A stretch of 64,000 nucleotides of DNA from Acidimicrobiia bacterium (GCA_027494135.1 JAOSJK010000023.1:12558-76557), one strand, 5' to 3'. Positions 905-62,998 are shown, counted from the stretch's first letter. Notes: a model not told the origin generated them from the sequence alone. Program-made: numbers and translations.

Positions 905-979
905 CACACTAGCATGATCTGCGACGATCGGATTCGCCCCGGACGCTGGTCCGGCGCCCGGGGTGCGGGGACGCGGCCC

Positions 980-3670: not shown

Positions 3671-4564
3671 ATGGATGGGATTCGACAACTCGGCTACGCC
3701 GGTCTCGACGTGTCCGATATCGACGCCTGGGAGATCTTCGCGACCGAGGTGCTGGGCATGCAGGCGACGCCCCGCGGCACGGGAGGCGACGCCCCACTTC
3801 ACCTGCGGATGGACGAGTACGAACGGCGGGTCTCGCTGCACCCTGCGCGCCGCGACGACGTGCGGTACCTGGGACTCGAGGTGGCGGGCACAGCCCAGCT
3901 AGCCGCGGTTCGCGCTCGTCTCGAGAGCGCCGGCCGGCCCGCCACGAGCGCGACGGAGAAGGAGGCGGCTGAGCGCTTCGCGGCGGGTCTGGTGAGGACG
4001 GAGGATCCGGATGGACTGCCGATCGAGGTCTATTTCGGCCCCAGGCTTCGGGTCGAAGAGCCCTTTCACTCGCCGAGGCCGATCTCGGGCTTCCGCACCG
4101 GCGACCTGGGGTTGGGGCACGTCGTGCTCTGCGTGGGCGACATCGAACGCAGCGTCGCCTTCTACCGGGATGTGCTCGGGTTCCGGATCAGCGACCTCAT
4201 CAGCTTCGAGCCTGCACCGGGCCTGGAGGTATCGGTCACCTTCCTCCACTGCAATCCCCGCCATCACTCCCTCGCGTTGGTGCAGGCGCCGCTGCCCACC
4301 CGTTTGAACCACTTGATGGTCGAGCTGCACTCACTCGACGACGTGGGCTCGACCTACGACCTGTGCCGGGACCGCGGCATCCCGATCGCGATGGACCTGG
4401 GGCGTCACACGAACGACCGCATGGTGTCCTTCTACGCACAGAGCCCGTCCGGGTTCCAGGTCGAGTACGGATGGGGCGGGCGACTCATCGACGATGCAAA
4501 CTGGCGCGTTCAGACCCACCGCGCCGCCAGCATCTGGGGGCACCGGCTAGGAGGTGAGGCATGA
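3671..4564 (+). CDS. type I extradiol dioxygenase (two-domain VOC; BphC/HsaC-like 2,3-dihydroxybiphenyl-type)
   Basis: 297-aa ORF with LGYAGLDVSD, GLGHVVLCVGDIERSVAFYRDVLGF, FLHCNPRHHSLAL and the overall length of the family. Confidence 0.85.
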   Translation: MDGIRQLGYAGLDVSDIDAWEIFATEVLGMQATPRGTGGDAPLHLRMDEYERRVSLHPARRDDVRYLGLEVAGTAQLAAVRARLESAGRPATSATEKEAAERFAAGLVRTEDPDGLPIEVYFGPRLRVEEPFHSPRPISGFRTGDLGLGHVVLCVGDIERSVAFYRDVLGFRISDLISFEPAPGLEVSVTFLHCNPRHHSLALVQAPLPTRLNHLMVELHSLDDVGSTYDLCRDRGIPIAMDLGRHTNDRMVSFYAQSPSGFQVEYGWGGRLIDDANWRVQTHRAASIWGHRLGGEA

Positions 4565-6381
4565 CCGCGGCAGGCTGGCGCAGGTGTGTCGACGAAGACC
4601 ACCGCGGTGGAACGTTTCGAGTGCACCGACGCACCTTCAGGGACCCGGCCATTCTGGAGCAGGAGCTGCGGGCCATCTTCGATCGATGCTGGATCTACGT
4701 GGGACACGCCTCGGAGGTTCCGGAACCTGGCGACTTCCGGGCACGAGACGTGGCCGGGCGCCCGGTGATCCTCGTGAGAGCCAACGACGGGGAGGTCCGG
4801 GTGCTCCTCAACACCTGCACCCATCGCGGCGCCCTGGTCTGCCGGGAGCGTGCGGGCAACACGCGCAGCTTCCAGTGCCCCTATCACGCCTGGAGCTTCG
4901 ACAACGCGGGTCGGCTGATCGGGACGCCGGGCAAGGAATCCTACAGTGATGCGTTCGAGCGCTCGGACTACGACCTGGGGCAGCCGGCACGCGTCGGGAG
5001 CTACCGGGGCTTCGTGTTCGCGGCCTTCAACCTGGAAGTCCCGACTCTGGAGGAGTACCTCGCCGGCGCCCGAGAGTATCTCGACCTCGTCTGCGATCAG
5101 TCCGGGACAGGCATGGAGATCGTGGGCGGAACGCAGGAGTACTCCATCGAGGCCAACTGGAAGCTCCTCGTCGAGAACAGCGTCGACGGTTACCACGGCG
5201 TCCCGACACACATGCGCTACTTCGGCTATCTGGTGAGCAGCGGTGTGGACCTCACGAAGATGAACCTCGGCGCGGGCGCCGGCTACGACCTCGGCAACGG
5301 TCATGCCGTCATCGAGTACGACGCACCCTGGGGGCGTCCTATCGCCCGATGGGTCGAGGCCTTCGGTGAGGACCTCCGCCCGGCCATCGAAGCGGAAGCC
5401 CGTCGCCTGGAGGAGCGCCACGGCGCGGAACGCGCGACCCGCATGTGCCAGATGAGCCGGAACCTCTTGATCTTTCCGAACCTGATCGTCAACGACATCA
5501 TGGCCATCACGGTTCGCACGTTCCACCCGGTGGAGCCGAGCCGGATGAACGTGTCGGCCTGGACGCTCGCACCCGTGGGCGAGGATCCCGCGCATCGCGC
5601 CATCCGGCTGGAGAACTTCCTCACCTTCCTGGGCCCGGGCGGCTTCGCCACGCCCGACGACGTGGAGATGCTGGAGTCGTGCCAGCGCGGCTTCGCGAAC
5701 GTCGAGGTCCAGTGGTCGGATATCTCGCGTGGCATGAAGAGCGACGTACCGCTGCCCTCGGACGAGGCTCCAGATGCGGGTCTTCTGGCGCCGCTGGCAG
5801 TCCCTGGTGGATTGCGAGGGGGAGTCGCTCCCGGCGGCCGTGCGGGCGGCCGGTTGAGAATGGCTCGCGAGGCCTCGCAACCGGTCAGGGAGCTCACGCC
5901 GGCCACCCCGACGAGATCGGATGTGGAGGAGCTGCTCTACCAGGAGGCGGAGCTGCTCGACGACTGGCAGCTCGAACGATGGCTGGAGCTCCTGACCGAC
6001 GACGTCGTCTACGAGGTGCCGCCCACCGACGCACCAGATGCCGACAGCTCGAGCACGCTCTTCCTCGTGTCGGACGACGCGGCGCGGCTGCGATCGCGCG
6101 TCCAGCAGCTCCTGGCCGGGAACGCCTGGGCCGAAGTGCCGAGATCCCGAACGCGCCGCTTCGTCTCCAACGTGCGCCTGAAGGAGCGTCGCGGCGACGA
6201 GCTGGACGTGACGGCGAACTTCTGCATCCACCGCTTCCGGTCCGGGAAGAGCGACGTCTACGTCGGCCGCTACCAGTACGTGCTCCTGCTCGATCCGCGG
6301 GGAATGCGCATCCGGCGGCGCCGGGCGGTCCTGGATCTCGAGTCGCTGCGTCCTCACGGAAAGGTCAGCATCATCCTCTGA
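4561..6381 (+). CDS. Rieske oxygenase alpha subunit (copy 2, 4561 to about 5857), read through in frame into its beta subunit (5860-6381) as the sequence stands
   Basis: Rieske motif CTHRGALVCR...CPYHAWSF. After ...LPSDE the conserved alpha tail (LQMRVFWRRWQSLV...AAG, stop at 5855-5857) continues in the +1 frame. The ATG at 5860 opens a normal beta subunit (MAREAS...DVEELLYQEAELLDDWQLERWLELL). The start at 4561 overlaps the upstream stop (ATGA). Confidence 0.85.
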   Translation: MTAAGWRRCVDEDHRGGTFRVHRRTFRDPAILEQELRAIFDRCWIYVGHASEVPEPGDFRARDVAGRPVILVRANDGEVRVLLNTCTHRGALVCRERAGNTRSFQCPYHAWSFDNAGRLIGTPGKESYSDAFERSDYDLGQPARVGSYRGFVFAAFNLEVPTLEEYLAGAREYLDLVCDQSGTGMEIVGGTQEYSIEANWKLLVENSVDGYHGVPTHMRYFGYLVSSGVDLTKMNLGAGAGYDLGNGHAVIEYDAPWGRPIARWVEAFGEDLRPAIEAEARRLEERHGAERATRMCQMSRNLLIFPNLIVNDIMAITVRTFHPVEPSRMNVSAWTLAPVGEDPAHRAIRLENFLTFLGPGGFATPDDVEMLESCQRGFANVEVQWSDISRGMKSDVPLPSDEAPDAGLLAPLAVPGGLRGGVAPGGRAGGRLRMAREASQPVRELTPATPTRSDVEELLYQEAELLDDWQLERWLELLTDDVVYEVPPTDAPDADSSSTLFLVSDDAARLRSRVQQLLAGNAWAEVPRSRTRRFVSNVRLKERRGDELDVTANFCIHRFRSGKSDVYVGRYQYVLLLDPRGMRIRRRRAVLDLESLRPHGKVSIIL

Positions 6382-9303: not shown

Positions 9304-9317
9304 TTTCCGATCCGGTG
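9304..9317. promoter_or_regulatory. degenerate operator copy TTTCCGATCCGGTG (left half perfect)
   Basis: Same geometry as the strong sites: 5 nt downstream is TAGTAT (9323-9328). It lies upstream of the NMO gene start at 9378. A right-half-like GATCGGATA sits at 9329-9337. Confidence 0.35.
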
Positions 9318-9377
9318 TGGAGTAGTATGATCGGATACGATCCGGGATTCCTCACCGGAGCCGTGACGGAGGAGCGC

Positions 9378-13378: not shown

Positions 13379-13570
13379 CGACGTTCGCCGGGTCCGCCGT
13401 CCCGGCCCGCGTGCCCGGTAGAGCCTATCACGATCGGCAATGGCATGGTAATATCGGAAAGCCTACGGAGCTGGGCCCCTGGGGTGGTGACGGCGCGACG
13501 GCGGATCGATGGATGGCCGCCTGCTATCTGTGCGTTGGGGGACGAGGCTCTTGTGGCAGGAGGGCAGGAC

Positions 13571-14191
13571 GTGGAACAAGAAGCATTGAACGGAATCAGC
13601 AAGCGCGTGCGAGCCTGGCGAGAGGAGCTCGGGCTCTCGCTCCACGAGCTGGCTGCACGCAGCGACGTGGCGGCGAGCACCATCCAGAAGGTCGAGACCG
13701 GCCAGATGGTCCCGTCGATCGCCGTGCTGCTCAAGATCGCGCGCGGGCTCGAGCGTCGCCCCGCCGAGCTCGTCTCGGACCAGTCCGAGGAATCCGACGT
13801 CGTCCTCCTGCGAGCCAAGGAGCATCCGGTGATCAGCGCCTCCTCGCGAATGCGGGTGGAGAGGCTCTCGGGAGACCTCTTCGACCCGGCCATCGAGGTG
13901 TGGCGCGTGCAGCTGCATCCGGGGTACGGGAGCGGAAAGGGGATGTACACGTACGAGGGGGAAGAGGTCGTCCTGTGCGAAGAGGGCGAGGTGACCTTCC
14001 GGATCGGCGATGACGAGTATCGTCTCGGTGCCGGAGACACGCTCCACTTCAAGGCGGGGATCCCCCACCAGTGGTGGAACTCGGGACGCTCGGTCGCCCG
14101 TCTGGTCGTCGCCGGGAACTTCCCGAAGGGTCTTCGTGCGAAGCTCCACGCCCAGGTGCAGCAGAACCGCCGCGTGCGAAAGTCATCGTAG
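13571..14191 (+). CDS. XRE-family HTH regulator with C-terminal cupin domain
   Basis: GTG at 13571 after a ggaggg RBS, in frame with ORF 13343..14191. HTH: LSLHELAARSDVAASTIQKVETG. Cupin: GEEVVLCEEGEVTFRIGDDEYRLGAGDTLHF. Confidence 0.8.
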   Translation: MEQEALNGISKRVRAWREELGLSLHELAARSDVAASTIQKVETGQMVPSIAVLLKIARGLERRPAELVSDQSEESDVVLLRAKEHPVISASSRMRVERLSGDLFDPAIEVWRVQLHPGYGSGKGMYTYEGEEVVLCEEGEVTFRIGDDEYRLGAGDTLHFKAGIPHQWWNSGRSVARLVVAGNFPKGLRAKLHAQVQQNRRVRKSS

Positions 14192-16031: not shown

Positions 16032-16045
16032 TTTCTGATTGGAAA
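16032..16045. promoter_or_regulatory. operator candidate TTTCTGATTGGAAA (2 mismatches)
   Basis: Lies in the divergent gap between the thioesterase and the amidohydrolase. TAGCAT (16051-16056) follows 5 nt downstream, the same geometry as at 891 and 21457. Confidence 0.5.
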
Positions 16046-16098
16046 TCATGTAGCATGGTTCGCAACGCGTGTCCTGCGAGCCGCGAAGAGGTGGCGCC

Positions 16099-17248
16099 AT
16101 GATTCCCGCCGGAACGATCTCCGCCGACTCCCACGTCGTCGAGCCGGCGAACTGCTACGTCGACTTCATCGAGCCGCGCTACCGCAAGGACGCCCCGCGA
16201 ATCGTGGAGCAGCCGGACGGCAGCGACGCCTTCTTCATCCAGGGCATGAAGCGGCCCGTCGGGCTCGGCCTGATGGACGGCGCGGGCTACACGCCGAAGG
16301 ACCGGGCCCGACGCCTGCGCAAGCTCAAGGCCGACGACGTGCGTCCGGGCGGGTACGACGGAAGAGCGCGCGCCGAGTACATGGACCGCGACGGCGTCGC
16401 GGCAGAGGTGGTCTACGCCTCCGTCGGGATGGCGCTGTGCCTCCACCGCGACCCGGAGTACAAGAACGCCTGCATGCAGGCCTACAACCGCTGGCTCGCC
16501 GGCTTCTGCGCATCCCTCCCCGATCGGATCTTCGGCCTGGCCCAGACGGCGGTGCTCTCGGTGGACGCGGCGATCGAGGACTTCGAGCGCGCCAAGCAGG
16601 CAGGCTTCGTGGGCATGATGATGCCTGGGCATCCCGTCCACGAGGACTACGACCATGCCGACTATGATGCGCTCTGGGACTGCGCCACGGATCTCGATCT
16701 CCCGATCTGCTTCCACATCCTGACCTCTCGCGAGGGGGAGCCTCTTCGCGCCCACGCGCGGGCACCCGATCAACAACTTCCTGGGCATCATCCGCGCCGT
16801 GCAGGACGTCGTCGGGATGATGACGCTCGGCGGGGTCTTCGAGCGACATCCGAAGCTCAGGCTCGTGTGCGCAGAGGGGGACGCCGGCTGGATGCCCCAC
16901 TACATGTACCGGATGGACCACGCCGCGAAGGTGCACGCCGACGACGGGATCATCCCGGGCCTCTCGAAGCTCCCGAGCGAGTACATCCGCAGCAACGTGC
17001 GCATGACCTTCCAGGACGACTGGACGGCCTTCCAATCGCTGCACATGCTCGACCAGCAGCAGCTGCTCTGGGCGAGCGACTTTCCGCACACCGATTCCAC
17101 CTGGCCGAGGTCGCAGGAGCTGCTGGCGGAGCACACGTCGCATCTCGACGAGGCGCAACGCCAGGCCATCATGCGAGACAACACGGCCAGCTTGTTCGGC
17201 CTGCCCGCGGGCGAGCTCTCCTGGCGCATGGACGCGACGGCGGGCTGA
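16099..17248 (+). CDS. amidohydrolase_2 family protein, frame disrupted at 16738-16744
   Basis: ATG at 16099 (MIPAGTISADSHVVEP...ICFHILTSREGE), then a frame switch to LFAPTRGHPINNFLGIIRAVQDVVGMMTLGGVFERHPKL...ASDFPHTDSTWP (ORF 16799..17248). Removing one C from gagcctc restores the frame. Paralog of 36148-37255. Confidence 0.85.
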
Positions 17249-19680: not shown

Positions 19681-19694
19681 TTTCCGATCGGAAC
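19681..19694. promoter_or_regulatory. operator candidate TTTCCGATCGGAAC (1 mismatch)
   Basis: Lies in the divergent gap between the ACAD pair (start 19647) and the PdxA-like gene. TATCAT (19703-19708) follows 8 nt downstream. Confidence 0.6.
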
Positions 19695-19738
19695 CTGCAA
19701 TGTATCATAGTAGAATCGACCGTGGGGCGGAGGGCGCC

Positions 19739-21456: not shown

Positions 21457-21470
21457 TTTCCGATCGGAAA
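21457..21470. promoter_or_regulatory. operator candidate, perfect palindrome TTTCCGATCGGAAA
   Basis: Lies in the intergenic gap 21396-21527, upstream of the SDR gene at 21528. TAAGCT (21476-21481) follows 5 nt downstream. Confidence 0.65.
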
Positions 21471-21527
21471 CACGCTAAGCTGATCGACATTCGAAGGCTC
21501 GAGGGGACTCCCGCACGGAGGTGGGTC

Positions 21528-31988: not shown

Positions 31989-32002
31989 ATTCCGATCGGA
32001 AA
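31989..32002. promoter_or_regulatory. operator candidate ATTCCGATCGGAAA (1 mismatch)
   Basis: Lies in the 126-nt gap between the thioesterase stop (32091) and the P450 start (31964), which points to an internal regulated promoter for P450 copy 1. Confidence 0.55.
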
Positions 32003-32090
32003 CAGTAGCACCCGATCATACCAGGATTCGACAGGCGGCGAAGCCTCGGCCTGCTTCGGCGTCTGGTGCGTGTCGGGACCTCGCCGGCGC

Positions 32091-34618: not shown

Positions 34619-36147
34619 CCCTGATCCGGCATTGAGGATCGAGGGGAAACGCCCAAATTGAAAGTGGCCCCGTCGGTGGTACGGATGGAAGTGCAAGCCA
34701 CCACCGTCCTCCGAAAGGGCCACATTCGTGCGACTAAGGAAAGGCTTCCTGAGAGCCCGCGTCAAGGGCGATCTGGAGATTGATTTCACCGAGGAGGCGC
34801 TGACGGCCCACGCGGGTCTGGAGCTCTTCGGGCGCTTCCTGCGGCAGTCTGGATTCGTCGATCGGCTTCGTGGGGTCTTCGCCGACCGCCGCTTCGATAC
34901 GGACTACGGCTCCTGGCGAATGGTGCTGCTCGTCATCGGGCTGCTGCTGGTCGGAGGGAGTCGGCTCCGCCACGGTCGCGTCATGGCTCGTGATCCTCTG
35001 TTTCTCCGCTTCGCGCGACTTCGGCGCATGCCCGATGAGCGGACCCTTGCCCGGTGGCTCGCAGGGATCCTGTCGGGTTTCCGCGAGCGGTTGAACGATC
35101 TGCTCCGTGAGATCGCGTTCACGACCTTCGGTGCCTGCCGGCTCGCACGCGCCACGCTCGACTTCGATGGCACCGTGATCCGTGCGGGCGACCAGGTCGA
35201 TGGCGCCGAGCGAGGCTTCAATCCCCATCACCCGAAGGACCGCTCCTACTACCCGCTCACGGGCCATCTCGCGCAGACCGGTCAGATCCTCGGCGTGTGG
35301 AATCGGCCGGGCAACGTGAACGACTCGGTGGATGCCGTCGAGCACTTGGAAGAGGTCATGGCCAGCGCCCGGAAGGCCCTGGGCGCGATCCCCTTTGAGG
35401 TCCGACTGGATGGTGCTTTCTGCCAGAGGGCCGTTTTCGAGTGCCTCACGGCCTCTGGCGCCGAATACGCTGTGCGGGTCCCCAAGTGGCATTGGCTCGG
35501 CATCCGCGAGGTGATGGCGAAGCGCAAGCGCTGGAAGCGCATCGGACGGCGTCTCGAGGCCTTCTCCGTGCAGCACCGGATCGCGAAGTGGAACCGGACG
35601 GAACGGATCGTCGTCTTCCGCAAGCACCTTTCGGGCAAGTCCAAGAAGGGCTTCCAACTCGACCTCTTCCAGCCCGACGACGGCCAGTACGAGTACTCGA
35701 TGGTGGCCACGAACAAGGCGGTGAGCGAGCGCACCGTGTGGGACTTCATGGCGGGCCGCGGGGGCCACGAGAAGACGCTGGCCGAGCTGAAGCAGCACCT
35801 GGCCTTCGGGTCGGTCGTGACCCAGGACTGGGATGCCAACAGCACCTGGCAGCTGCTGTCGGCCATGACCCACAACCTCGTGCGTCAATTCCAGATCGAG
35901 ATGGGAGCGAAGCCGCGGAAGAACGGCCGCAAGCGCACCTACCGCTTCACGCTCCCCTCATTGCGCAGCTTCCGCTTCGAGCTGCTCCATCTCCCGGGCA
36001 AGCTCGCCCGGCCCGCCGGCCGGATGCAGCTCAGGATCGCCGCCGCGCCCGACTCGCAACGCCAGATCCGAGCCATCGAGAGGAAGCTCGCCGCCTGAGC
36101 TCCGACCCGGCTACCCTGAATCCCGTGATTTCAATGCCGGATCAGGG
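34619..36147 (+). mobile_element. IS1380-family insertion sequence (about 1.53 kb) flanked by a CTAG duplication
   Basis: A perfect 22-bp terminal inverted repeat, CCTAGCCCTGATCCGGCATTGA, at 34614-34635 matches the reverse complement of 36131-36152. CTAG occurs at 34615-34618 and 36148-36151. The element carries a single DDE transposase ORF. Confidence 0.85.
34728..36098 (+). CDS. IS1380-family DDE transposase
   Basis: 456-aa ORF (GTG start) with FTEEALTAHAGLELF and GFNPHHPKDRSYYPL, typical of the family as I recall it. Confidence 0.8.
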   Translation: MRLRKGFLRARVKGDLEIDFTEEALTAHAGLELFGRFLRQSGFVDRLRGVFADRRFDTDYGSWRMVLLVIGLLLVGGSRLRHGRVMARDPLFLRFARLRRMPDERTLARWLAGILSGFRERLNDLLREIAFTTFGACRLARATLDFDGTVIRAGDQVDGAERGFNPHHPKDRSYYPLTGHLAQTGQILGVWNRPGNVNDSVDAVEHLEEVMASARKALGAIPFEVRLDGAFCQRAVFECLTASGAEYAVRVPKWHWLGIREVMAKRKRWKRIGRRLEAFSVQHRIAKWNRTERIVVFRKHLSGKSKKGFQLDLFQPDDGQYEYSMVATNKAVSERTVWDFMAGRGGHEKTLAELKQHLAFGSVVTQDWDANSTWQLLSAMTHNLVRQFQIEMGAKPRKNGRKRTYRFTLPSLRSFRFELLHLPGKLARPAGRMQLRIAAAPDSQRQIRAIERKLAA

Positions 36148-40051: not shown

Positions 40052-40175
40052 CGCAGGAGATCCATGTCGGCTCCCTCGGGTTCGTTCCCTCCGGATCGTA
40101 TCGCGGCCATTTCAGATTGACAACGATCCTTTCTTATGCGAAACAAGCAGGCCGGACGCGGAGAAGGATCGACGC

Positions 40176-40958: not shown

Positions 40959-40993
40959 TTTCCGATCCGCCAAGGAGCATTGAGCATCCGAAA
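40959..40993. promoter_or_regulatory. split/degenerate copy of the operator half-sites (TTTCCGATC ... ATCCGAAA)
   Basis: TTTCCGATCCGCCA at 40959-40972 and ATCCGAAA at 40986-40993, upstream of the NMO gene (TTG at 41048). The geometry differs from the strong sites. Confidence 0.25.
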
Positions 40994-46585: not shown

Positions 46586-46876
46586 TCAGCTCGGCTCGGG
46601 CAGTTCGACGCGATGGAGCGCGGCGGCGTTGTCCGGGAGGATCTTGCGACGCCTCGACTCGCTCCACTCCGCGGTCACCTCGACGAGGTGTTCTCGCACC
46701 GACGGATGGAGACACGTCGGATGCGGGAAGTTCGTCTCGAAGAGCTGCGGGCGCCGATCACGGGAGGAGGCCGGGGCTCGGTAGCTCCAGAGATCCGGAG
46801 GCTCGGTGATGTGGGCGTTCGTGTCGATGACGTGCAGTAGCTCGATCGAGCGGCGCACCGCTGCTCCACCCGCCAT
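46586..46876 (-). pseudogene. amidohydrolase_2 relic: N-terminal and C-terminal ends joined by an internal deletion
   Basis: 96 aa. VIDTNAHITEPPDLW is the family N-terminus. NFPHPTCLHP...SESRRRKILPDNAAALHRVEL is the family C-terminus. About 250 central residues are absent compared with 16099-17248 and 36148-37255. Confidence 0.65.
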
Positions 46877-48640: not shown

Positions 48641-49425
48641 GGTCGGCGAGGAGGAGCGCACCCTGCCCGAAGTAGTTGAGGATGAGCGCAGGGACCCATG
48701 TCGGCGTAGAGCGCCTCGGTCCCCGTGACCACCAGGAACACGGCCGCGAGTACCAGGGCGCCGTGGAAGCCGTTGTGCGCGAAGAAGAGAGCTGCGTGCA
48801 CGGGGCTCAGCGCGCCGAGCACCGAGGGCTCCGCGAGGATGCCGCGGATCCCGAGCGCGGCCAGCACCACGAACCACACGAAGGTGACGGGTCCGAAGAC
48901 GGCGCCGACCTTGGCCGTGCCCCGGCGCTGGAAGAGGAAGAGCCCCACCAGGATCACGAGCGTCCCCGGGACCACGAAGGGCCGGAAGAGGGGCGTCGCC
49001 ACCTCGAGGCCCTCCATCGCGCTCAGCACGGAGATGGCGGGCGTGATCATGCCGTCGCCGTAGAGGAGCGCCGCACCGAAGAGCCCGAGCACCGCCAATC
49101 GCCACGAGCGCCCCTGGGCGGGCGCATGGCTCGGCACGACGAGGGCCATCAGCGCCAGGATCCCGCCCTCGCCCCGGTTGTCGGCGCGCATCACAAACAC
49201 GAGGTACTCGACGGAGACCACCAGGATCAGCGACCAGACGATCAGCGACAGGACGCCCAGCACGTTGGCCGGGGTCACCGGAACGCCGTACTCGCCGTAG
49301 AAGCACTCGCGGATGGCGTAGAGCGGGCTCGTGCCGATGTTGCCGTACACGACCCCGAGCGCCGCGAGGGAGAGCGTGAACAGGTAGCGGCCGCGCGGCC
49401 GCTCCGGCGTCGGCTCGACGGTCAT
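48641..49425 (-). pseudogene. kup: KUP-family potassium transporter, 5' fragment with an internal lesion near 48691-48700
   Basis: MTVEPTPE...LGVVYGNIGTSPLYA...RADNRGEGGILAL...TGTEALYADMG, then about 15 expected residues are missing with a frame change to VPALILNYFGQGALLLADH. Similarity then stops, so only about 265 of the roughly 620-650 expected codons remain. Confidence 0.8.
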
Positions 49426-49847
49426 GAACAGGAGTCCTCTCGCTTCGATCCGCGGACCTTGGGCTCCGAGGCCAAGAGAGCCAGGCCGCCTCGCCGCAGA
49501 GCGCGGTGGGGCAGACGGCCGAGAGGCCGAGCTCCTGGTACATCGCGGCCCGCTCGGGATCGGAGACCCGGGCCAGAACCTCCTTCGCGCCGAAGAGCCT
49601 CTGCGCCATCAGCGAGGCCATCAGGCTCTCGAGATCCTCGCGGATCGCGACGACGACAGCGGCCTCCGCGATCGCCGCCCGGCGGAGGGTCGGCGGCTCC
49701 GTCGCGTCTCCTTCGAGCACGAGGCCACCGAACCCGCGCTCCTGCAGATGTTCGAGTGCTGCCGCGCTGCGATCCCATGCCGACAGGGAGGTACGCCCCC
49801 TCCCGTCCGCATCCCACGATGACGGCTCGTCGTTCAGACGCGGTCAC
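49422..49847 (-). pseudogene. TrkA-N/RCK-type NAD-binding domain gene with two compensating frame changes
   Basis: The GTG at 49847 gives RRAVIVGCGREGAYL. The middle (DRSAAALEHLQERGFGGLVLEGDATEPPTLRRAAIAEAAVVVAIREDLESLMASLMAQRLFGAKEVLARVSDPERAAMYQELGLSAVCP) is in the ORF 48263..49720 frame. The tail (LALLASEPKV...) returns to the first frame. The stop overlaps the kup start (ATGA). Confidence 0.6.
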
Positions 49848-50068
49848 TCCGGCCAGCTCACTTCCTGGGCCCTCCGGGCTCTTCTGCGGAGAGCGGCTGC
49901 TTCTGCCGGTCGGTGGATCTGCGTCATCGATTCTCATGGGTGCGATGCGGCCAGGGCTTCTCGGAGGCGCCTGGCAGCGCAAAGCGCGGGTGGCCCAGGG
50001 CAAAGCACATCGCGTGCCAGCGCCGGCAGAGGCCCCTGAACTCGCATGGCGAGGCCGCGCGAGCCGCA

Positions 50069-50091
50069 GGACCTGCAAAAATGCAGGGTCC
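50069..50091 (-). terminator. stem-loop downstream of the 50177 gene (possible terminator)
   Basis: GGACCTGCA-AAAA-TGCAGGGTCC, a 9-bp stem with one bulge, 86 nt past the stop. It has no U tract. Confidence 0.25.
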
Positions 50092-50176
50092 AGCCTTGCG
50101 AATCGCAGTGCAGCGGCGGGATGTGGCGCGATCGTTGAGTCGGTGCGCGAGGGCCTCGCTGAGCGCCCGTGTCGAG

Positions 50177-50826
50177 TCAGAACAGGCTGAGCTGGGAGCA
50201 CCGGCGCCGCAGCTCTGCGCCCGTCGTCTTGGCAGCCTCGCGGAGGGCGCGGAGGTGGCAGCGACCCGCGAGGAGGTGGCACCACTTTGCCGGGAGCGTG
50301 GCGTCGGCAGGGTCCGACGAGAGGCGCCCGTGCCGCTCGCGCAGGACCTGCTTGAGCGCCGCCCGCAGCGATGCCTCCTCCTGGTCGATCGACTCGCGGA
50401 GCCACGCGAGGCGCGCCTCGGGGTCCTGCTTGGCGCGAACGGGAAGGCGCTCCTCGATCAGCTCGCGATGGGAGACACGGCGCATCCGGAGCGCGAAGCC
50501 GGCGGACGAGTAGCCTCGATCTGGTCGACGCGCGGCCAGGGACCGTCGCGTCGATCATCTGCGTAGGAGAATGGATCGGGATCCCAGCACTGCGCGCGGC
50601 GGCGCTCGTCGCGCGCGCGGGCCTTCGCGAGGTAGGCCTCCGTGTACTCGTGCTCCGGAGGGTCGAGGTCCGCGCGGCGGAGCTGATGCTCCCAGGTGAG
50701 CGCCCCGTGCCAGGCCTCCCACTCGTCTCGGGTGGCAAAGCGAGGGCAGGGCGGCGGCAGCGGTCCGTCCGCTCCGTCGCTACCGGAGAGGGTCTGGCGC
50801 CCCGGGTCGACCTGCTGGCTGTCCAT
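50177..50826 (-). CDS. hypothetical protein(s): two overlapping ORFs (50458..50826 and 50177..50485), or one gene with a 1-nt gap near 50500
   Basis: Both pieces look coding (EYTEAYLAKARARDERRRAQ; RELIEERLPVRAKQDPEARLAWLRESIDQEEASLRAALKQVL). The upstream in-frame extension of the second ORF reads GYSSAGFALRM. I recognise no family. Confidence 0.4.
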
Positions 50827-50827
50827 G

Positions 50828-51100
50828 TCAGTACTCCTCCGGGAGGAGCACCGTCGTCAGGGAGCGATCGGCCTCGGTGATGATCCAGAAGCGGATCCCT
50901 TCATGCGTGGTGTACGACGAGAGGAGCCGCGCGCGCTCGCCGACCGCGGCTTCATTGGCCTCGGCGTCTTCGGGGCAGACGTTGCCCCAGTCTCCCGAGG
51001 CGTGGCGCCCGAGCGCCCGCAGCATCTCGCCGTTCGGGACGCGCTCCAGCGCCCCCAGCGTGCTCACCAACCTGCCGAGTCGAAACCTCGCCTTCGCCAT
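50828..51100 (-). CDS. small conserved protein of conjugative-element/plasmid accessory regions (CDWG...TT.L.P.EY type)
   Basis: ORF 50828..51469 trimmed to the ATG at 51100 with a GAGGAGGTG RBS. Sequence: MAKARFRLGRLVSTLGALE...HASGDWGNVCPEDAEANEAAV...RFWIITEADRSLTTVLLPEEY. It matches my memory of a roughly 90-100 aa family often mislabelled as a restriction subunit. Confidence 0.6.
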   Translation of the reverse strand: MAKARFRLGRLVSTLGALERVPNGEMLRALGRHASGDWGNVCPEDAEANEAAVGERARLLSSYTTHEGIRFWIITEADRSLTTVLLPEEY

Positions 51101-51200
51101 CGTCTCACCTCCTCGCCTCGGGGATCCGTGCTGGCCGGCCGCTCCGCGGCCAGGGCCCCCGGCCTCTGGCCGCTCACAGCGATCCGCCGCGTCCGAAGGA

Positions 51201-51250
51201 GGCGGGGTCAAGGACGCCGAAGGCGAGCGCAGCGGTGCCTTGACGCCGCC
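51201..51250. repeat. imperfect inverted repeat containing a 25-nt element (51224-51248) shared with 53507-53531
   Basis: The arms GGCGGGGTCAAGGACGCC and GGTGCCTTGACGCCGCC can pair. The 25-mer CGAGCGCAGCGGTGCCTTGACGCCG is identical at both loci. Confidence 0.6.
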
Positions 51251-51469
51251 GGCGGACGCGGCATCTCCGAACGCGGCGCAGGTGCCCGGGATCGGCTCGA
51301 TGGAGGCGATGGAGGTCAGCGGAACACGGGCGCTATTCGCGCCGCTCGAGGGAGGCCATCCGAGCTGCAGGAGCGACCTGGAGGGACTCGGTTCGCTTCC
51401 AGTGGTCTGCTTCGCGACTCTTCTCTGCGGGAGCAAGCACCGGCCAGTTGCTGGCCTGCGGAGGAGCAC

Positions 51470-52006
51470 GTGCAGCGAGCCACAATGACGATCGTTCTAG
51501 CCTTCTTGGCGCTTGCTTGCGGGGAAGGCCGGGAGCGCCATCCGACAAGCGAGGCCATGCCGACCATTCAAGATGCGGCAAAGGACCGAAGCGTGAGGCT
51601 CCTCTACGTTCCAGCCTATGCGTACGCGGTCGATCAGAGTGGCCGGACCACGCTGGCGACGACGCTCACCGTCCACAACACGACGTTCGAGAACGTGACG
51701 GTCCATTCCGTGGACTACTACGACTCCGCAGGCATCCTGGTGCAGAAGCAGCTCGATGCACCCCGCGAGCTCGGCCCGCTGGAGGCGATCGAGTTCCACC
51801 AGGAGGCGAAGGGACCGAGCGAGGGAGCGGGGGCCAACTTCCTCGTCGGGTGGACGGGCCCCACCGGCTCGTCGCCGCCCCTGGCCGAGGCGCTGATGGT
51901 CGGACACCAGGGAGCCGGCCGGCTGACCTTCACCTCCCGGGGCGTGGAGGTCGGGATGCGCTCAGCGGGCAAACCTGCCTCTGCGGTCGTCGAAGAGGAG
52001 CCGTAG
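51470..52006 (+). CDS. DUF3124-like lipoprotein
   Basis: The GTG at 51470 (or ATG at 51485) gives a lipobox LALAC. Motifs: LLYVPAYAYAV, LTVHNTTFENVTVHSVDYYDSAGILV, GAGANFLVGW. Confidence 0.6.
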   Translation: MQRATMTIVLAFLALACGEGRERHPTSEAMPTIQDAAKDRSVRLLYVPAYAYAVDQSGRTTLATTLTVHNTTFENVTVHSVDYYDSAGILVQKQLDAPRELGPLEAIEFHQEAKGPSEGAGANFLVGWTGPTGSSPPLAEALMVGHQGAGRLTFTSRGVEVGMRSAGKPASAVVEEEP

Positions 52007-52055
52007 GCGCAGACGCTGCTCGGCGCGCTGAGCTACGAACGGCGGGCCGCCCCGC

Positions 52056-52520
52056 CTACACGGAAAGGCGATCGGGGCGCGACTCCCGGATCGAGTGGAA
52101 CGCGCCGCTGCGCGCCCAGACGACGTGGTCGAGGAGCGTCACGCCGAGGATGCGGCCGGCCTCGGCCAGGCGCTTCGTCACCTCGAGGTCTTCGGCGCTC
52201 GGCGTGGGATCGCCGCTCGGGTGGTTGTGGCCGATGAGGAGAGCGCAGGCCCCGAGCGCGATGGCCGGCTGGAAGACCTCGCGCGGGTGGACGAGTGAGG
52301 CGGTGGCCGTGCCGATGGAGACGATGGAGTCGGCGATCGGGCGGTGGCGGCCGTCGAGGTAGATGGCCACGAAGTGCTCGCGCGCGTCGTCGCGGATCCG
52401 GCGCCGCAGGTAGTCCGCGACCTGGTCCGGGCTCGTGATCTTCGCGGGAGCGCGCCGCCGTGCGCCGACGTAGCGGATCGCGACCTCCCGAATCATGTGG
52501 ATCTTGTCCGTGCTCGACAT
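52056..52520 (-). CDS. radC: RadC-like JAB-domain protein
   Basis: ORF 52056..52712 trimmed to the ATG at 52520. Motifs: HFVAIYLDGRHRPI, GHNHPSGDPTPSAEDLEVTKRL, LLDHVV. Confidence 0.8.
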   Translation of the reverse strand: MSSTDKIHMIREVAIRYVGARRRAPAKITSPDQVADYLRRRIRDDAREHFVAIYLDGRHRPIADSIVSIGTATASLVHPREVFQPAIALGACALLIGHNHPSGDPTPSAEDLEVTKRLAEAGRILGVTLLDHVVWARSGAFHSIRESRPDRLSV

Positions 52521-52553
52521 CGTTGCCCTGCCTCCGTCTTGGGGCCCGTTCCG

Positions 52554-52587
52554 GGCCGGCTCTCTCACCGGCGCTGGAGAGCCGGCC
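52554..52587 (-). other. perfect 11-bp-stem hairpin in the radC leader
   Basis: GGCCGGCTCTC (52554-52564) pairs with GAGAGCCGGCC (52577-52587) across a 12-nt loop, 34 nt upstream of the radC ATG. Confidence 0.5.
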
Positions 52588-53011
52588 GGACGGGCCGGAG
52601 GCCGCACCCGTCTGGAGCAAGGCGACGAGGCAGAGCCCGTGAACGGAGGCTCGGCGGAGGGCGCGGGATTTGCCGATGGCGCTGCAGCGCAGGACGAGTG
52701 TGCGGACGACACGACGGGGCAGGGGATGGAGCGAGCGCGGAGAGGTCGTCGATGGGGGAGCTACGCGGTGCAGGAGGGCGGCGAACGCCGCGACTTGCCG
52801 CGCCACGACACAGATCGGAGTAGGGGCGCTTCGGGGGGTACTACGGGTCGGCCCGACACGAGATCGTCGATCCTGGGGCAACCTGCGCAGCCCATCTTCT
52901 GGGCATGGACGGCGAAACGCACGGAGAGGCGCTTTCGGCGCGAAGAGGGTCCGCGCGGCCCGCCCCGCGCGCGAGGGGGGCGAGCGTCAGCGAGGCGCGC
53001 GGGCGCCGCTC

Positions 53012-53434
53012 TCAGGCGAGCGGCTCGCGCACGGCCTCCTTGCCGAAGAAGCCCTGCGCTCGCAAGTTGCGGAACCACATGCGGGCGAAGCTGCGGAGCT
53101 CGCTCTTCAGGCTCGGCACGAGGTGGGTGCGGTGGCCCTGCGGCGAGTAGCGGTAGACCTCCTGGTTGGTGCCGGTGAAGTCGTTGCGGAACGAGAGGGG
53201 CTCGGCCGTGCGGACGCCGGTGGCCGTGCGGATCTCGAAGACGATCTCGGGATCGCGCATGAGGTCGCCGTTCTGGATGGCGGTGTGCGAGAGCGCGATC
53301 AGCGTGCCGCCGTCGGCACTTCGTCCGATGGCCTCGATCGAGAGCGGCATGTAGCCGGAGACGGTGATGCGGACCGCCTGCTCGCCGCCGAGCAGCCGAT
53401 CGAGGTCGCGTGCGAAGGTCTCGTAGGTCTTCAT
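53012..53434 (-). CDS. conserved hypothetical, DUF6908-like (mobile-element accessory protein)
   Basis: 140-aa ORF with YMPLSIEAIG, ALSHTAIQNGDLMRDPEIVFEI and LKSELRSFARMWFRNLRAQGF. The family name is from memory only. Confidence 0.5.
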   Translation of the reverse strand: MKTYETFARDLDRLLGGEQAVRITVSGYMPLSIEAIGRSADGGTLIALSHTAIQNGDLMRDPEIVFEIRTATGVRTAEPLSFRNDFTGTNQEVYRYSPQGHRTHLVPSLKSELRSFARMWFRNLRAQGFFGKEAVREPLA

Positions 53435-53482
53435 CGGTCTCTCCCTCCGTGGGTGTTTCGAGGGCGAGAAGCGCCGGCGCCG

Positions 53483-53532
53483 CCGGTGTCCAGGCCGGCC
53501 GCAGGCCGAGCGCAGCGGTGCCTTGACGCCGG
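53483..53532. repeat. second copy of the 25-nt element (53507-53531) with an upstream complementary arm
   Basis: The identical 25-mer CGAGCGCAGCGGTGCCTTGACGCCG. CCGGTGTCCAGGC (53483-53495) is imperfectly complementary to GTGCCTTGACGCCGG. Confidence 0.55.
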
Positions 53533-53777
53533 AAGAGCGGCGCCGGCGATATGGAAGAGCCCGGGCACCCAGAGAGGGAGAGACGAGGGCCGCAGAACGA
53601 GCGACGGACCGAGTGAGCTCGAGGCGAGCGAACGCCGGCCGGCTACTCCAGGAACCCGCGCTGCATCACCTCGGCTACAGCGGGTGCAACCAGAGGCCGG
53701 TTCGCGGTACCGAAGACGCGCCGTCCGTTCGGGCGCCGGATGCGCTCGCCGCGGACGTTTGCACCGCGCAACAGGGT

Positions 53778-54521
53778 CTACCGATCCGCCGGATCCCTTA
53801 CCCGTGATTCGGCATCCGAGACGCGCGAGGCTCGCGCCCGGTCCAGCTCCTCGAACTTCTCGCGCGTAATCGAGATGAAGACGCCGGTCGACTCGGCGGT
53901 GAGCGTGTCGTCACCGACGTAGATCTCGCCGCTCGTGAAGATTCGCCGGCCCTCGACCCGGGTGAGACGGCCCTCGAAGCGGAGCTCCGTGGCGACCGGC
54001 GTCGGGCGGCGATAGCGGATGGTGATCTCGCCCGTCATGCCCGGGCTTCCCGAGAAGATGCAGGCCATTCCGAGGAGCTCGTCGAACGCGGCCGCGAGGA
54101 ACCCGCCGTGGACGCAGCCGGGCGCCCCCTCGTAGGCTCTTCCAAATCGGCCGGTGCCGTGGACGATCCCATTCCCGGGATCGGGCACCAGGTCCAGCGG
54201 TGGAGCGACCGGGTTCGAGAGGCCCACCACGGGACTGCGATCGTGGAACGTCTCCATGCCTGCCAAGGCCATCTCGGCGACGCCGGGCGCCGCGGCCATC
54301 CGCGGCTGCGAAGCGAAGCGTGCCGCCATCGTGCGAATCTCGTCCGCAGCGTCGAGGAGATCGGCCTGCGAGGCATCGGTGGTGCAGACACCGTCGAGCA
54401 ATTCGCGCAGCGCCGCGGCCAGGCGACGTTTTGCCGGCCAGGTCCCGCTGGCAGCAAGCGTGTCCTCACGAAAGCGCGCGATGCGCTCCAGGATCGATCG
54501 ATCGAAGGTCTCGGTCGCCAA
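53778..54521 (-). CDS. hot-dog fold thioesterase (PaaI-like core), paralog of 15319-15987
   Basis: ORF 53778..54722 trimmed to the TTG at 54521, 4 nt after GGAGG. Motif: GAPGCVHGGFLAAAFDELLG...GMTGEITIRYRRPTP. Confidence 0.65.
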   Translation of the reverse strand: MATETFDRSILERIARFREDTLAASGTWPAKRRLAAALRELLDGVCTTDASQADLLDAADEIRTMAARFASQPRMAAAPGVAEMALAGMETFHDRSPVVGLSNPVAPPLDLVPDPGNGIVHGTGRFGRAYEGAPGCVHGGFLAAAFDELLGMACIFSGSPGMTGEITIRYRRPTPVATELRFEGRLTRVEGRRIFTSGEIYVGDDTLTAESTGVFISITREKFEELDRARASRVSDAESRVRDPADR

Positions 54522-54564
54522 GCTTCCTCCAGGACGGCGTGACAAGAGCAGCTCCGAGGGAGCC

Positions 54565-55290
54565 TCAACGGATGCCGCGTTCGAGCGCGACCTCGCGGTC
54601 GAAGTCCCCGTCCTCGAAGGGTGTGGACACTCGACCAAGGGCTCCCTCGGACATGGCTCTCGGATAGTGCCGACGCCATGTCGCCTCCATCGCCGCGACG
54701 GGAACGGCGTCGTGGATCCCATGGTCCCGGATGTACTCCATGTGCCGTCTGCCCTCGCGATCGAACGGGTGGTAGATGGAATCGCTCCGTCCGTCGAACT
54801 CGAGCGGCTGGAGGTTCATCTTCTCGCAGAGCTCGACGTTGAACGCGGGCGTCGCCTTCACCCAATTTCCCTCGATCCGAAGGTGGGCGTAGCCGTGGTA
54901 GTAGAAGACATCGGTTCCCATGAAGTCCCGCATGCGCGCGGTAGAGAGGTGATTGCGGACGTCGGCGAAGCCCAGGCGGGCGGCGATGCCCAGCGCGCGG
55001 CAGCAGGCTGCCAGGACCACCGCCTTGCCCACGCACCAGCCGCGGCCGGCGCGCAGGGTGGCGGATGCCCGCAGCGCATCGGGGGACGAGCCCGCCGTGT
55101 AGGGGTCGTAGCGGATGCCGTCGCGCACCGCGTAGTAGAGGCGCACGGCGCTCTCGCGTTCACCGGCCGCGGACCTCGCGTGGTCCCGTGCGAAGGCGAC
55201 CACCTCGGGGTGGTCGGAGTCGACGTGCTCGTTCGGGGCCAGGAAGGCCGCGGTGGCGGCCGGTAGGGCACGCTGGGAGCGGTGGCTCAT
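54565..55290 (-). CDS. transglutaminase-like cysteine peptidase-fold protein
   Basis: ATG at 55290 (GGAGG RBS) overlaps the P450 stop (ATGA). Motif: GRGWCVGKAVVLAACCRALGIAARLGFADVRNH...YYHGYAHL. Confidence 0.7.
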   Translation of the reverse strand: MSHRSQRALPAATAAFLAPNEHVDSDHPEVVAFARDHARSAAGERESAVRLYYAVRDGIRYDPYTAGSSPDALRASATLRAGRGWCVGKAVVLAACCRALGIAARLGFADVRNHLSTARMRDFMGTDVFYYHGYAHLRIEGNWVKATPAFNVELCEKMNLQPLEFDGRSDSIYHPFDREGRRHMEYIRDHGIHDAVPVAAMEATWRRHYPRAMSEGALGRVSTPFEDGDFDREVALERGIR

Positions 55291-56548
55291 CTCGCCTCCA
55301 CGCGCAGGGGCAGAGACTTCGGGCCCCTGAGGACGAGGGAATCGAGCATCGGAACGGAACCGGCAGCGAGCTCGAGGCTCCGGCAGCGCGAGAAGAGGCT
55401 CCTCGAACGCCACCCGCGCCTCGAGCCGGGCCAGCGAGGCCCCCAGGCAGAAGTGGATGCCGTGTCCGAAGGCCACGTGTCCGGACACCTCGCGGTCGAT
55501 GTCGAAGCTCTCGGCGTCGCGGAACTGCTCCTCGTCGTGGTTCGCCGAGGCGAAGAAGACGAGCAGCATGCTGTTCGCGGGGACATTTCCGCTCGGGAGC
55601 TCGACGGCGCTCTGCGTCGAACGCGGGAGCGCCTGGACCGGCGAGTCGTAGCGCAGCGCCTCGTCGACGAGCGCGGGGACGAGGCTGCGGTCGGTCAGCA
55701 CGCGCGCGAGCTGTTCCGGGTGGGCGAGCAGCGCCTTCACTCCGTTCCCGATCAGGTTCGTCGTAGTCTCGTTGCCGGCGATGAGCAGCAGCACGACGAA
55801 GGACATGACCTCCCCCGTCGTCAGTGTGTCGCCCTCCTCGGCGCGGACGAGGACGCTGATGAGATCGTCCTTCGGCGAGGCGCGCCGCTCGGCGGCAATG
55901 CGCTCGATGTAGTCGGCCATCTCGTCGGCCGCGCGCCGCACGTCGTCCTTCGAGTACTGGCCGGCCGCCCCGGACAGGCCGATCACGAAGGCATCCGACC
56001 ACGCCTTGAACTGGTCGCGCCGCTCGGGCTCGACGCCCAGCATCTCGGCGATCACCGTCACGGGCAGCGGGACGGAGAGCCCGCTCACGAGCTCCAGATC
56101 CCCGTGCCGGATCGCCGCGTCCAGGCAGCCGCTCGCGAGCTCGCGAATCCGCGGCTCGAGCGCAGCGATGCGGCGTGGCGTGAAGCCGCGGTTCACCAGC
56201 CGGCGCAGGCGCGCATGGTCGGGGGTCGGTCGCAATCATCATGTTCGAAGCCAGCAGCCGGTGGCCCGCCAGCGCGCCGCTGTTCGGTCCGATACCGATG
56301 CCCCCTCCCTGGAGGGCCACCTGGAGTGCGGTCGACGAGAACAGCTCCGGGTGGTGGAGCGCGTGCAGCACGTCCGCGTAGCGGGTGATCGCGTACAGGG
56401 GCATCCCCTCCGCGAGCTGGTGAATCGGCGACTCGCGCCTCAAGGCGGCGTAGTAGGGGTAGGGGTTCTCACGGACTTCGGGGGCCAGCAGGCTGAAGTC
56501 ACGTGCGCCCGGCTCTCCCATCGTCGACTGCGGTGTCGTTGCCGTCAT
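55287..56548 (-). CDS. cytochrome P450 (copy 2), two frame disruptions (55395-55401 and G5 run 56221-56225)
   Basis: ATG at 56548 with a GGAGGAG RBS. N-terminal part ...NMMIATDP, then PDHARLRRLVNRGFTP..., I-helix LLIAGNETTTN, heme loop FGHGIHFCLGASLAR, then a switch to LFSRCRSLELAAGSVPMLDSLVLRGPKSLPLRVEAR*. Confidence 0.85.
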
Positions 56549-56566
56549 GACACTCCTCCTTGCGGG

Positions 56567-62762: not shown

Positions 62763-62787
62763 CCGCCTCTTCCAGAATATTGATTCT

Positions 62788-62798
62788 GTCTGTCAGAC
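62788..62798. promoter_or_regulatory. palindromic box GTCTGTCAGAC next to the TetR gene at 62762
   Basis: Lies 26 nt upstream of the start at 62762. A related box in the opposite orientation sits at 62963-62978. Confidence 0.4.
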
Positions 62799-62828
62799 TA
62801 ACTAATTCGATTCCTGTTTCATCAGTCA

Positions 62829-62850
62829 GCCAGATGGCAGCCAGATGGCG
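62829..62850. repeat. tandem 11-bp direct repeat GCCAGATGGCA GCCAGATGGCG
   Basis: Read directly from the sequence. A third CCAGATG occurs at 62953-62959. Confidence 0.5.
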
Positions 62851-62962
62851 AGGCACATTGAAAAGGCAACAAGATCATATAAATAACTGGATCTACACGG
62901 ATATAGCTCGATCCAACCCATGTCCTGTCGCTTCGTATCACCGTTCAAGTGACCAGATGATT

Positions 62963-62978
62963 GACTGACAAGACAGTC
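62963..62978. promoter_or_regulatory. inverted-repeat box GACTGACAAGACAGTC next to the TetR gene at 62999
   Basis: Lies 21 nt upstream of the ATG at 62999. Its minus-strand reading, ACTGTCTTGTCAGTC, resembles CTGTCTGTCAGAC at 62786-62798. Confidence 0.4.
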
Positions 62979-62998
62979 GATGCTATCGCACCTTCGGC

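Follow-up and report, generated by a model that had tools for sequence, protein, structure and literature searches.

A 14-bp palindrome as the likely operator of an XRE-cupin repressor across a large catabolic gene cluster of uncultured Myxococcota-like bacteria

Introduction

What protein, if any, reads a 14-bp palindrome, TTTCCGATCGGAAA, that recurs in front of the operons of a large catabolic gene cluster? The stretch of DNA analysed here, 64,000 nucleotides and referred to as the window, raises this question. A preliminary description had proposed that the palindrome is the operator of a single repressor, seated in the spacer between −35 and −10, and had put forward three candidate regulators encoded in the window, an XRE-cupin protein and two TetR proteins:

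13571–14191, plus strand: XRE-cupin transcription factor (HTH_3 plus Cupin_2), start set by homologue alignment
62130–63682, no strand assigned: two divergent TetR genes beside an RND efflux pump

We followed up this proposal by computation, in the window and in related loci (given L numbers below), and asked where the copies lie, how they are placed relative to promoters, whether they are conserved and which regulator accompanies them.

Results

The catabolic cluster and its surroundings

The cluster extends over ~48 kb, with roughly 45 genes from 0.4 to 48.6 kb. Among their products are two Rieske oxygenase alpha/beta pairs that resemble phenylpropionate, naphthalene and biphenyl dioxygenases, an extradiol dioxygenase of BphC type, a dioxygenase of LigB type, several Amidohydro_2 enzymes, luciferase-like oxidoreductases of F420 type and NMO-family reductases. 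These are accompanied by two thiolase plus OB-fold pairs like the steroid side-chain aldolase Ltp2–ChsH2 (PDB 6OK1), six acyl-CoA dehydrogenases, a P450, thioesterases, a CoA transferase and a CoA ligase. From the enzyme mix, the putative substrate would be aromatic or alicyclic and carry an acyl side chain.

Past 48.6 kb the window holds mobile-element-like genes, followed by the RND efflux pump and the two TetR genes. The region 48700–57000 is unlike the cluster: it contains RadC, DUF6908, DUF3124, several ORFs without family matches and an ORF fusing a P450 fragment to a transglutaminase-like domain, carries no operator copies, and is possibly what an integrated mobile element has left behind. 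The gap between the two TetR genes (62763–62998) is markedly A+T-rich and contains the inverted repeats GTCTGTCAGAC and GACTGACAAGACAGTC; it probably holds a separate TetR operator for the pump/P450 module. Within the cluster, a DDE transposase gene (DDE_Tnp_1_4; 34728–36098) lies between an Amidohydro_3 gene and the thiolase/LLM/Amidohydro_2 operon, and is probably an insertion sequence.

When the genes were compared with intact orthologues (L017, L014), frame changes were seen in six of them, at ~7970, 13042, 14602, 16745, 20135, 31167 and 31700. The genes concerned are two Amidohydro_2 genes and those for enoyl-CoA hydratase, Zn-ADH, the PdxA-like protein and P450 (twice), and one Rieske alpha and beta pair was merged as a single ORF (5766–5860). 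Most of the frame junctions fall in runs of 5–6 G or C, which points to long-read homopolymer errors and not to gene decay. An ORF at 46586–46858 (minus strand, 90 codons) was considered as a small regulator and rejected, as it is really an Amidohydro_2 gene with ~300 codons deleted internally, the N-terminal 40 residues being fused to the C-terminal 50. Its full-length orthologues in L014 (1430–2629) and L001 (~4503–5672) have the same operator in front.

Copies of the palindrome occupy the intergenic gaps of the cluster

A mismatch search of the 64 kb returned six copies of the palindrome with at most two mismatches, the same six that the preliminary description had located. The copy at 21457 is perfect, those at 891, 19681, 31989 and 46906 carry one mismatch each and that at 16032 carries two. 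Only 0.14 copies were expected by chance in the whole window, and none of 100 dinucleotide shuffles reached six. Because an A+T-rich word is likelier in the non-coding DNA of a 69% G+C sequence, the null was repeated on the intergenic DNA of the cluster, using a Markov null built from the cluster's own gaps (25 gaps, 2,055 nt, 65% GC); 0.009 copies were expected there, and the maximum in 3,000 runs was one. When three mismatches were allowed, two further copies appeared, one intergenic (40959) and one coding (55586). A weight matrix trained on 26 copies from close relatives gave nine matches of at least 9 bits in the window, namely the six copies and sites at 9304, 40130 and 40959, and all nine fell inside the 4.5% of the cluster that is non-coding. 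With a degenerate site at 13427 added to these nine, ten gaps bear a site, including the eight longest of the 25.

Gene starts were corrected against intact orthologues before the copies were placed. Once this had been done, all six copies were found in gaps of 91–179 nt in front of operons, bearing out the intergenic placement described earlier; four of the gaps are divergent (891, 16032, 19681 and 46906), as had also been claimed, and two are co-directional (21457 and 31989). The sites in the window are as follows:

891–904, no strand assigned: operator TTTCGGATCGGAAA, one mismatch, 26.1 bits, in a divergent gap between a ChsH2-like OB-fold/thiolase operon (minus strand, start ~876) and an F420-type LLM oxidoreductase/Rieske operon (plus strand, start ~980)
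910–915, plus strand: −10-like TAGCAT, followed by the GATC of a second box (916–919), centred 20 bp from the palindrome centre
9304–9338, plus strand: weak bipartite site, TTTCCGATCCGGTG, 5 nt, TAGTAT, GATCGGATAC, 10.3 bits
13427–13460, plus strand: degenerate operator ATCACGATCGGCAA (four mismatches), 8 nt, TAATAT, with the half-site TCGGAAA (13454) 20 bp on, between the divergently transcribed enoyl-CoA hydratase operon and XRE-cupin gene
16032–16056, plus strand: operator TTTCTGATTGGAAA, two mismatches, 5 nt, TAGCAT, where a minus-strand 4HBT-type thioesterase gene diverges from a plus-strand Amidohydro_2 gene (start 16099)
19681–19708, plus strand: operator TTTCCGATCGGAAC, 8 nt, TATCAT, within the 91 nt that separate a minus-strand acyl-CoA dehydrogenase pair (start 19647) from the divergent plus-strand PdxA-like/PHP genes (start ~19739)
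21457–21485, plus strand: perfect operator, 5 nt, TAAGCT, then the second-box GATC, in front of an SDR, MBL, CoA-transferase, thioesterase and CMD operon (start 21528)
31989–32017, minus strand: operator ATTCCGATCGGAAA and, 20 bp off, a GATC overlapping minus-strand TATGAT, in front of the P450 and four acyl-CoA dehydrogenase genes (minus strand, start ~31945)
40130–40143, no strand assigned: weaker copy TTTCTTATGCGAAA, 15.3 bits, between a minus-strand thiolase/OB-fold/LLM/Amidohydro_2 operon and a divergent plus-strand SDR gene
40959–40972, plus strand: weak copy TTTCCGATCCGCCA, with CATCCGAAATA 21 bp on, 12.8 bits
46906–46933, plus strand: operator TTTCCGATCGGAAT, 8 nt, TATTAT, flanked by divergent genes, an Amidohydro_2 remnant and Zn-ADH on the minus strand and acyl-CoA ligase on the plus strand (start ~46966)

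The weaker sites resemble the stronger ones in layout. The site at 9304 also reads TTTCCGATC...TAGTAT GATCGGATAC, bipartite like the stronger sites, and lies upstream of an NMO-family gene whose orthologue alignment begins at 9378; its layout is repeated in L020 at 18147 and in L023 at 6965. The copy at 40959 is likewise upstream of an NMO-family gene (41048), and a promoter-like site is present on the minus strand near 40130, at 40123–40095. No GTDB species representative matched the 38-mer surrounding the perfect copy exactly. In the literature the core 12-mer of the palindrome was met only in unrelated primer sequences, the palindrome word is absent from a survey of XRE motifs (PMC12565409), and a search on XRE-cupin catabolic repressors and operators found nothing. 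We consider it very likely that the palindrome is a transcription-factor operator.

The palindrome stands in a fixed register with promoter elements and a second box

The preliminary description had reported a fixed register, with 5 nt between the palindrome and TAGCAT (910, 16051) or TAAGCT (21476), and 8 nt between it and TATCAT (19703) or TATTAT (46928). This register was recovered, and we found it in nine related gene clusters as well. Across a set of 42 non-redundant copies, drawn from the window and from related loci, TAnnnT lies exactly 5 nt past the palindrome in 15 and 8 nt past it in 4, every other spacing being found at most three times. Of the 15 copies with the 5-nt spacing, eight also have a TTG that stands 2 nt upstream of the palindrome. 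The −35-like TTGcgT runs into the left end of the palindrome, and a spacer of 18 nt, 13 of them palindromic, separates it from TAGCAT. The promoter at 31989 (minus strand) is arranged otherwise, its palindrome lying 12 nt 3′ of the −10 (TATGAT). A strict sigma-70 consensus scan (at least 9 of 12 positions) flagged none of the six promoters, our own count being 7–8 of 12. With a consensus of this weakness, the −10 assignment rests on the conserved fixed spacing, and the promoters that we infer at the six copies are backed by conservation.

The same 42 copies revealed a second box. In 10 of them the centre of a GATC stands exactly 20 bp from that of the palindrome, with at most three copies at any other offset, and the mean weight-matrix score is −13.6 at offset 20 versus about −25 at other offsets. 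This box is weak and GATC-centred, and abuts or overlaps the −10. Five genomes retain a block reading (G)GTTCGCAAC just 3′ of the Amidohydro_2 −10 (window 16057–16075). A degenerate second box, with TCGCAAC as its right half, and a 5′-UTR feature are both possible readings of this block.

The palindrome is conserved at orthologous promoters

The palindrome recurs at orthologous promoters in L001, L002, L011, L014, L017, L027, L028, L088 and L090, and was absent from eight distant loci that have only the CoA transferase in common. Orthologues were located for the copies at 891 (L011 at 7615, L088 at 805), 19681 (L017 at 16159), 31989 (L027 at 13918) and 46906 (L014 at 2697, L001 at 5729). At the Amidohydro_2 promoter (16032, compared with L011, L017, L028 and L002) and the SDR promoter (21457, compared with L017, L002 and L090), TTGcg–palindrome–N5–TAGCAT forms a conserved island in 4–5 genomes, with diverged flanks. 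All 11 copies in loci with gene calls are intergenic (5/5 in L011, 3/3 in L014 and 3/3 in L017, the last taking in one copy inside an over-long start call). Furthermore, in distant homologues the outer TTTCC and GGAAA persist and the central four bases (GATC) vary, constant half-sites with a variable centre being the pattern expected of a dimeric XRE-type HTH site.

A search for palindrome–N5–TAGCAT gave six matches. Two of them are in the closest relative, MAG OFTM107, whose proteins are 72–91% identical to those of the window (full-length matches), and the remaining four fall in unrelated taxa and have the look of chance matches. Among public data the nearest relatives are metagenome-assembled genomes, most of which carry the label Myxococcota or 'Deltaproteobacteria'. 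Several close-relative contigs are labelled Phycisphaerae, Spirochaetales or Phycisphaerales (L001, L002/L028, L026 and L070), and these discordant labels suggest mis-binning or mislabelling in some of the assemblies.

The XRE-cupin protein as the best candidate for the cognate regulator

The XRE-cupin protein contains HTH_3 (Pfam, E 3.4e-13, residues 8–62) and Cupin_2 (Pfam, E 3.6e-13, residues 107–175). Its AlphaFold model (pLDDT 87) has five helices in residues 2–63, and the best solved-fold match of the model is 1Y9Q, an HTH_3-plus-cupin regulator, with cupins next. Against the nearest named family, the putrescine-utilisation repressor PuuR (NF007408), the protein scored 56.8 bits at a cut-off of 211; the architecture is the same and the score is below the equivalog cut-off, and assignment as a PuuR orthologue was rejected.

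The cluster and the XRE-cupin gene are syntenic in L001, L011, L014, L017, L020, L023, L024 and L028, and this gene encodes the sole regulator that recurs inside related clusters. Weak copies had been noted upstream of this gene, and they are indeed present, ATCACGATCGGCAA at 13427 and TCGGAAA at 13454, the site being kept at the orthologous position in L011, L017 and L026. The promoter reads ATCACGATCGGCAA...TAATA TCGGAAAG, and its second box accounts for the half-site at 13454–13460. The site at 13427 is a probable autoregulatory site of the XRE-cupin gene.

We then looked at homologues of the regulator. A copy with at most two mismatches was present within 250 nt upstream of the regulator gene in 10 of 60 homologue loci, against 0.7% of control windows. 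The ten loci amount to about five independent lineages, including homologues of 33–43% identity (Binatia and others). An ORF check on seven of the ten put the copy in the gap just before the regulator in six; in L043 the neighbour boundary is uncertain. Members of the family share a conserved recognition helix, (A/P)STIQK(V/I)E; one homologue set was retrieved via the recognition-helix peptide and cannot show covariation of helix and motif. In a large homologue clade of 44–59% identity with the same recognition helix, no copy was detected within 20 kb; the regulator gene there lies directly behind another gene, without a gap, and a de novo inverted-repeat search in this clade gave codon-bias noise only. 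The word 'TACCGGATCGTGAC' in front of regulators of 47–59% identity was considered as a variant operator and discarded, being the 3′ end of a conserved upstream gene (...YRIVT and stop). In another clade (L068–L072, 38–43% identity) a palindrome with a variable centre fronts the regulator gene, 10 nt upstream of a good TTGACA −35 (L068 at 5521, L069 at 9895, L070 at 8299, L072 at 81). This geometry is unlike the spacer placement in the window, and such a position alone does not imply repression.

A regulator-blind scan for the exact 14-mer in GTDB genomes (596 Gb) gave at least 120 loci, of random taxonomy as expected of chance. Among the matches listed, an XRE-cupin protein (31% identity, Pfam-confirmed) is encoded at only two of these loci. 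In L119 ('Mycobacterium sp. KBS0706') the palindrome lies 38 nt upstream of the XRE-cupin start codon, which in L180 (Pikeienuella sp.) is preceded by two copies, at 33 and 60 nt; the probability of such placement at random within 8 kb is ~0.015 each. Two other loci deserve mention in their own right. Paraburkholderia tropica (L161) has four copies, two of them exact, in 2.4 kb (439, 1849, 1940 and 2847), beside a TetR_C_13-type gene next to an OsmC gene, with no XRE-cupin gene in 8 kb. This may be an unrelated regulon using the same word, and the presence of copies beside an unrelated TetR means that the word is not exclusive to XRE-cupin proteins. In L101, a 47% G+C uncultured bacterium, the 14-mer belongs to hairpins at 1733 and 3334 (aattcttccaactt...aagttggaagaatt), an element that looks like a dispersed repeat or terminator and not an operator.

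The proposal of a single repressor operator in the −35/−10 spacer thus gains support at the sequence level from intergenic placement, fixed register and conservation at orthologous promoters. Of its three candidate regulators, the XRE-cupin protein was singled out by synteny and upstream copies, and the two TetR proteins, with no copy in front of either gene, fell away. We regard it as likely that the palindrome is the operator of an XRE-cupin repressor encoded at 13571–14191, with most of the cluster as its regulon.

Comparison with known repressors

Phage 434/lambda-type repressors have the classical XRE/Cro-C1 HTH and operators of 14–17 bp. The operator in the window is similar, being 14 bp long and two-fold symmetric, with the outer 4–5 bp specific and the centre tolerant. 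Neighbouring sites are filled cooperatively in the phage systems, a behaviour that we only infer for the window. Unlike the phage repressors, the XRE-cupin protein has a ligand-sensing cupin as partner domain, and its targets are catabolic promoters.

The operator of KstR2 reads AnCAAGnnCTTGnT. That of KstR reads TnnAACnnGTTnnA (PMC1995591). Neither pattern has a match anywhere in the window, in agreement with the earlier view that the palindrome is distinct from both. The proposed logic is nevertheless that of KstR and KstR2, in which one repressor reads a short palindrome repeated between genes, often in divergent gaps (Kendall et al. 2007, PMC1995591), and their clusters are large, of lipid or steroid type and inclusive of the repressor's own gene, as in the window (PMC1995591). 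Enzyme families are also held in common with the KstR regulon: acyl-CoA dehydrogenase pairs, Ltp2/ChsH2-type thiolases, an extradiol dioxygenase and a P450. The fold differs, being XRE-cupin in the window and TetR in KstR and KstR2. The TetR at 62130 scored 34.7 bits against the KstR equivalog, whose cut-off is 280, and no KstR match was listed for the TetR at 62999. KstR is an analogue and the system in the window is not a member of its group, as motif and protein family both fail.

The Pseudomonas factors PauR, PsdR and ErfA, and their relatives, have the same N-terminal XRE HTH and C-terminal cupin sensor (Trouillon et al. 2021, PMC7901475). These factors are local repressors on palindromes in core promoters. 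They are encoded beside the metabolic genes they control and act by occlusion at core promoters, a pattern that the XRE-cupin protein in the window would follow. PauR also acts at many promoters, controls 29 genes and is probably autoregulated, as is proposed for the protein in the window. The latter differs from them in having no close sequence kinship, a different operator word and a different host group, and in its targets, an aromatic/acyl-CoA cluster as opposed to polyamine or peptide metabolism (PMC7901475). A second box 20 bp off, as seen in the window, finds no mention for the Pseudomonas factors in the portion of that paper drawn on here.

Alternative explanations

Could another regulator read the palindrome? 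One of the edge TetR proteins (62130–62762 or 62999–63682) might do so in a KstR-like manner, as TetR repressors commonly bind short palindromes and govern lipid or steroid catabolic clusters (PMC1995591), and TetR homologues are found close to some related clusters (L014, L024, L027 and L032). Yet both genes adjoin the RND pump, 15 kb past the last operator, and the 236-nt gap between them (62763–62998) has no motif match and contains other inverted repeats. TetR homologues were undetected in the fetched DNA of most motif-bearing loci (among them L001, L002, L011, L017, L028, L030, L043, L068–L072 and L080–L084), the TetR orthologue in L014 has ACTGAACGTTCAGT in front (16427–16563), and the lack of a KstR or KstR2 motif in the window weighs against a TetR operator. 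In Paraburkholderia tropica the identical 14-mer does lie 53 nt upstream of a TetR gene, but that protein has only a generic HTH in common with those of the window, and we judge a TetR operator to be very unlikely. Somewhat less improbable, though still unlikely, is a regulator encoded elsewhere in the genome, global or pathway-specific, of which the XRE-cupin gene would merely be one target: the view is limited to 64 kb of the genome, and a copy before the XRE-cupin gene is equally expected of a regulon member. An unlinked regulator does not easily explain, however, why palindrome and XRE-cupin gene are paired in unrelated organisms, amid differing neighbours in Binatia, an alphaproteobacterium and an isolate named Mycobacterium sp., and, the pump-linked TetRs aside, no further DNA-binding protein recurs in related clusters.

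The XRE-cupin protein might also bind the palindrome and yet activate transcription or act dually, by remodelling an over-long spacer or from upstream of the −35. The spacer of 18 bp is longer than optimal, the hexamers are weak, and the palindrome stands upstream of a good TTGACA in L068–L072. Against this, the XRE-cupin factors characterised to date are all transcription inhibitors (PMC7901475), spacer occupancy and a box over the −10 are positions of steric exclusion, and the site downstream of the −10 at the P450 promoter weighs against activation. We give activation or dual action as little credence as a TetR operator. Least probable of all, to the point of being barely credible, is that no protein binds and that the palindrome is a dispersed repeat or hairpin, a GATC methylation or restriction word, or an RNA element. 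The palindrome does include GATC, and in L101 the 14-mer is the centre of a ~40-bp hairpin with two occurrences. In this lineage, however, the 14 bp and the promoter hexamers are conserved and the flanks are not; a perfect 14-nt palindrome without a loop can form no stable hairpin; the palindrome is 5′ of the −10 in most promoters and would go untranscribed; and the central GATC varies in distant homologues while TTTCC and GGAAA stay. Repression by the XRE-cupin protein remains our preferred reading.

Discussion

In the mechanism that we propose for the XRE-cupin repressor, a dimer would place its two HTH domains on the outer TTTCC and GGAAA half-sites. At most promoters the operator would fill the spacer from the −35-like TTGcgT to the −10-like TAnnnT, and at the P450 promoter it would lie just downstream of the −10; with the operator in the spacer or past the −10, the bound protein would keep RNA polymerase off. 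The second box, 20 bp off and over or beside the −10, would probably take a second dimer cooperatively, as 20 bp corresponds to two helical turns and the same face of the DNA, which suits a second dimer. The C-terminal cupin would sense a small molecule, presumably a pathway substrate or intermediate, and the protein would then release the DNA. The regulon would comprise about ten promoters and most of the ~45 genes, plus the regulator's own gene.

This is very probably an ordinary kind of switch, judged from the DNA, and a new and unusually large example of it in uncultured Myxococcota-like bacteria. Its notable features are regulon size, a bipartite site, the retention of operator and regulator across phyla and an uncultured host. 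XRE-cupin repressors have so far been described mainly in Pseudomonas, mostly with one or two targets, and the window would extend them to a large catabolic regulon. A bolder reading, which we offer tentatively and think possible but on balance doubtful, is that of a cross-phylum master switch. An XRE-cupin subfamily (STIQK(V/I)E helix; TTTCC-N4-GGAAA operator) would preside over an uncharacterised degradation supercluster for aromatic or alicyclic acyl-CoA compounds (steroid- or terpenoid-like) in uncultured Myxococcota and Binatia, as a non-homologous counterpart of KstR, with a dimer of dimers bracketing the −10. If this were true, the cupin ligand would name the pathway substrate.

The analysis provides a candidate regulator, an operator and a regulon of about ten promoters and 45 genes for bacteria known only from metagenomes. 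The operator could serve to trace the limits of this regulon in further metagenome-assembled genomes, and the repressor–promoter pair would be a possible biosensor part, given the effector. Identification of the releasing ligand would reveal which compound the pathway breaks down.
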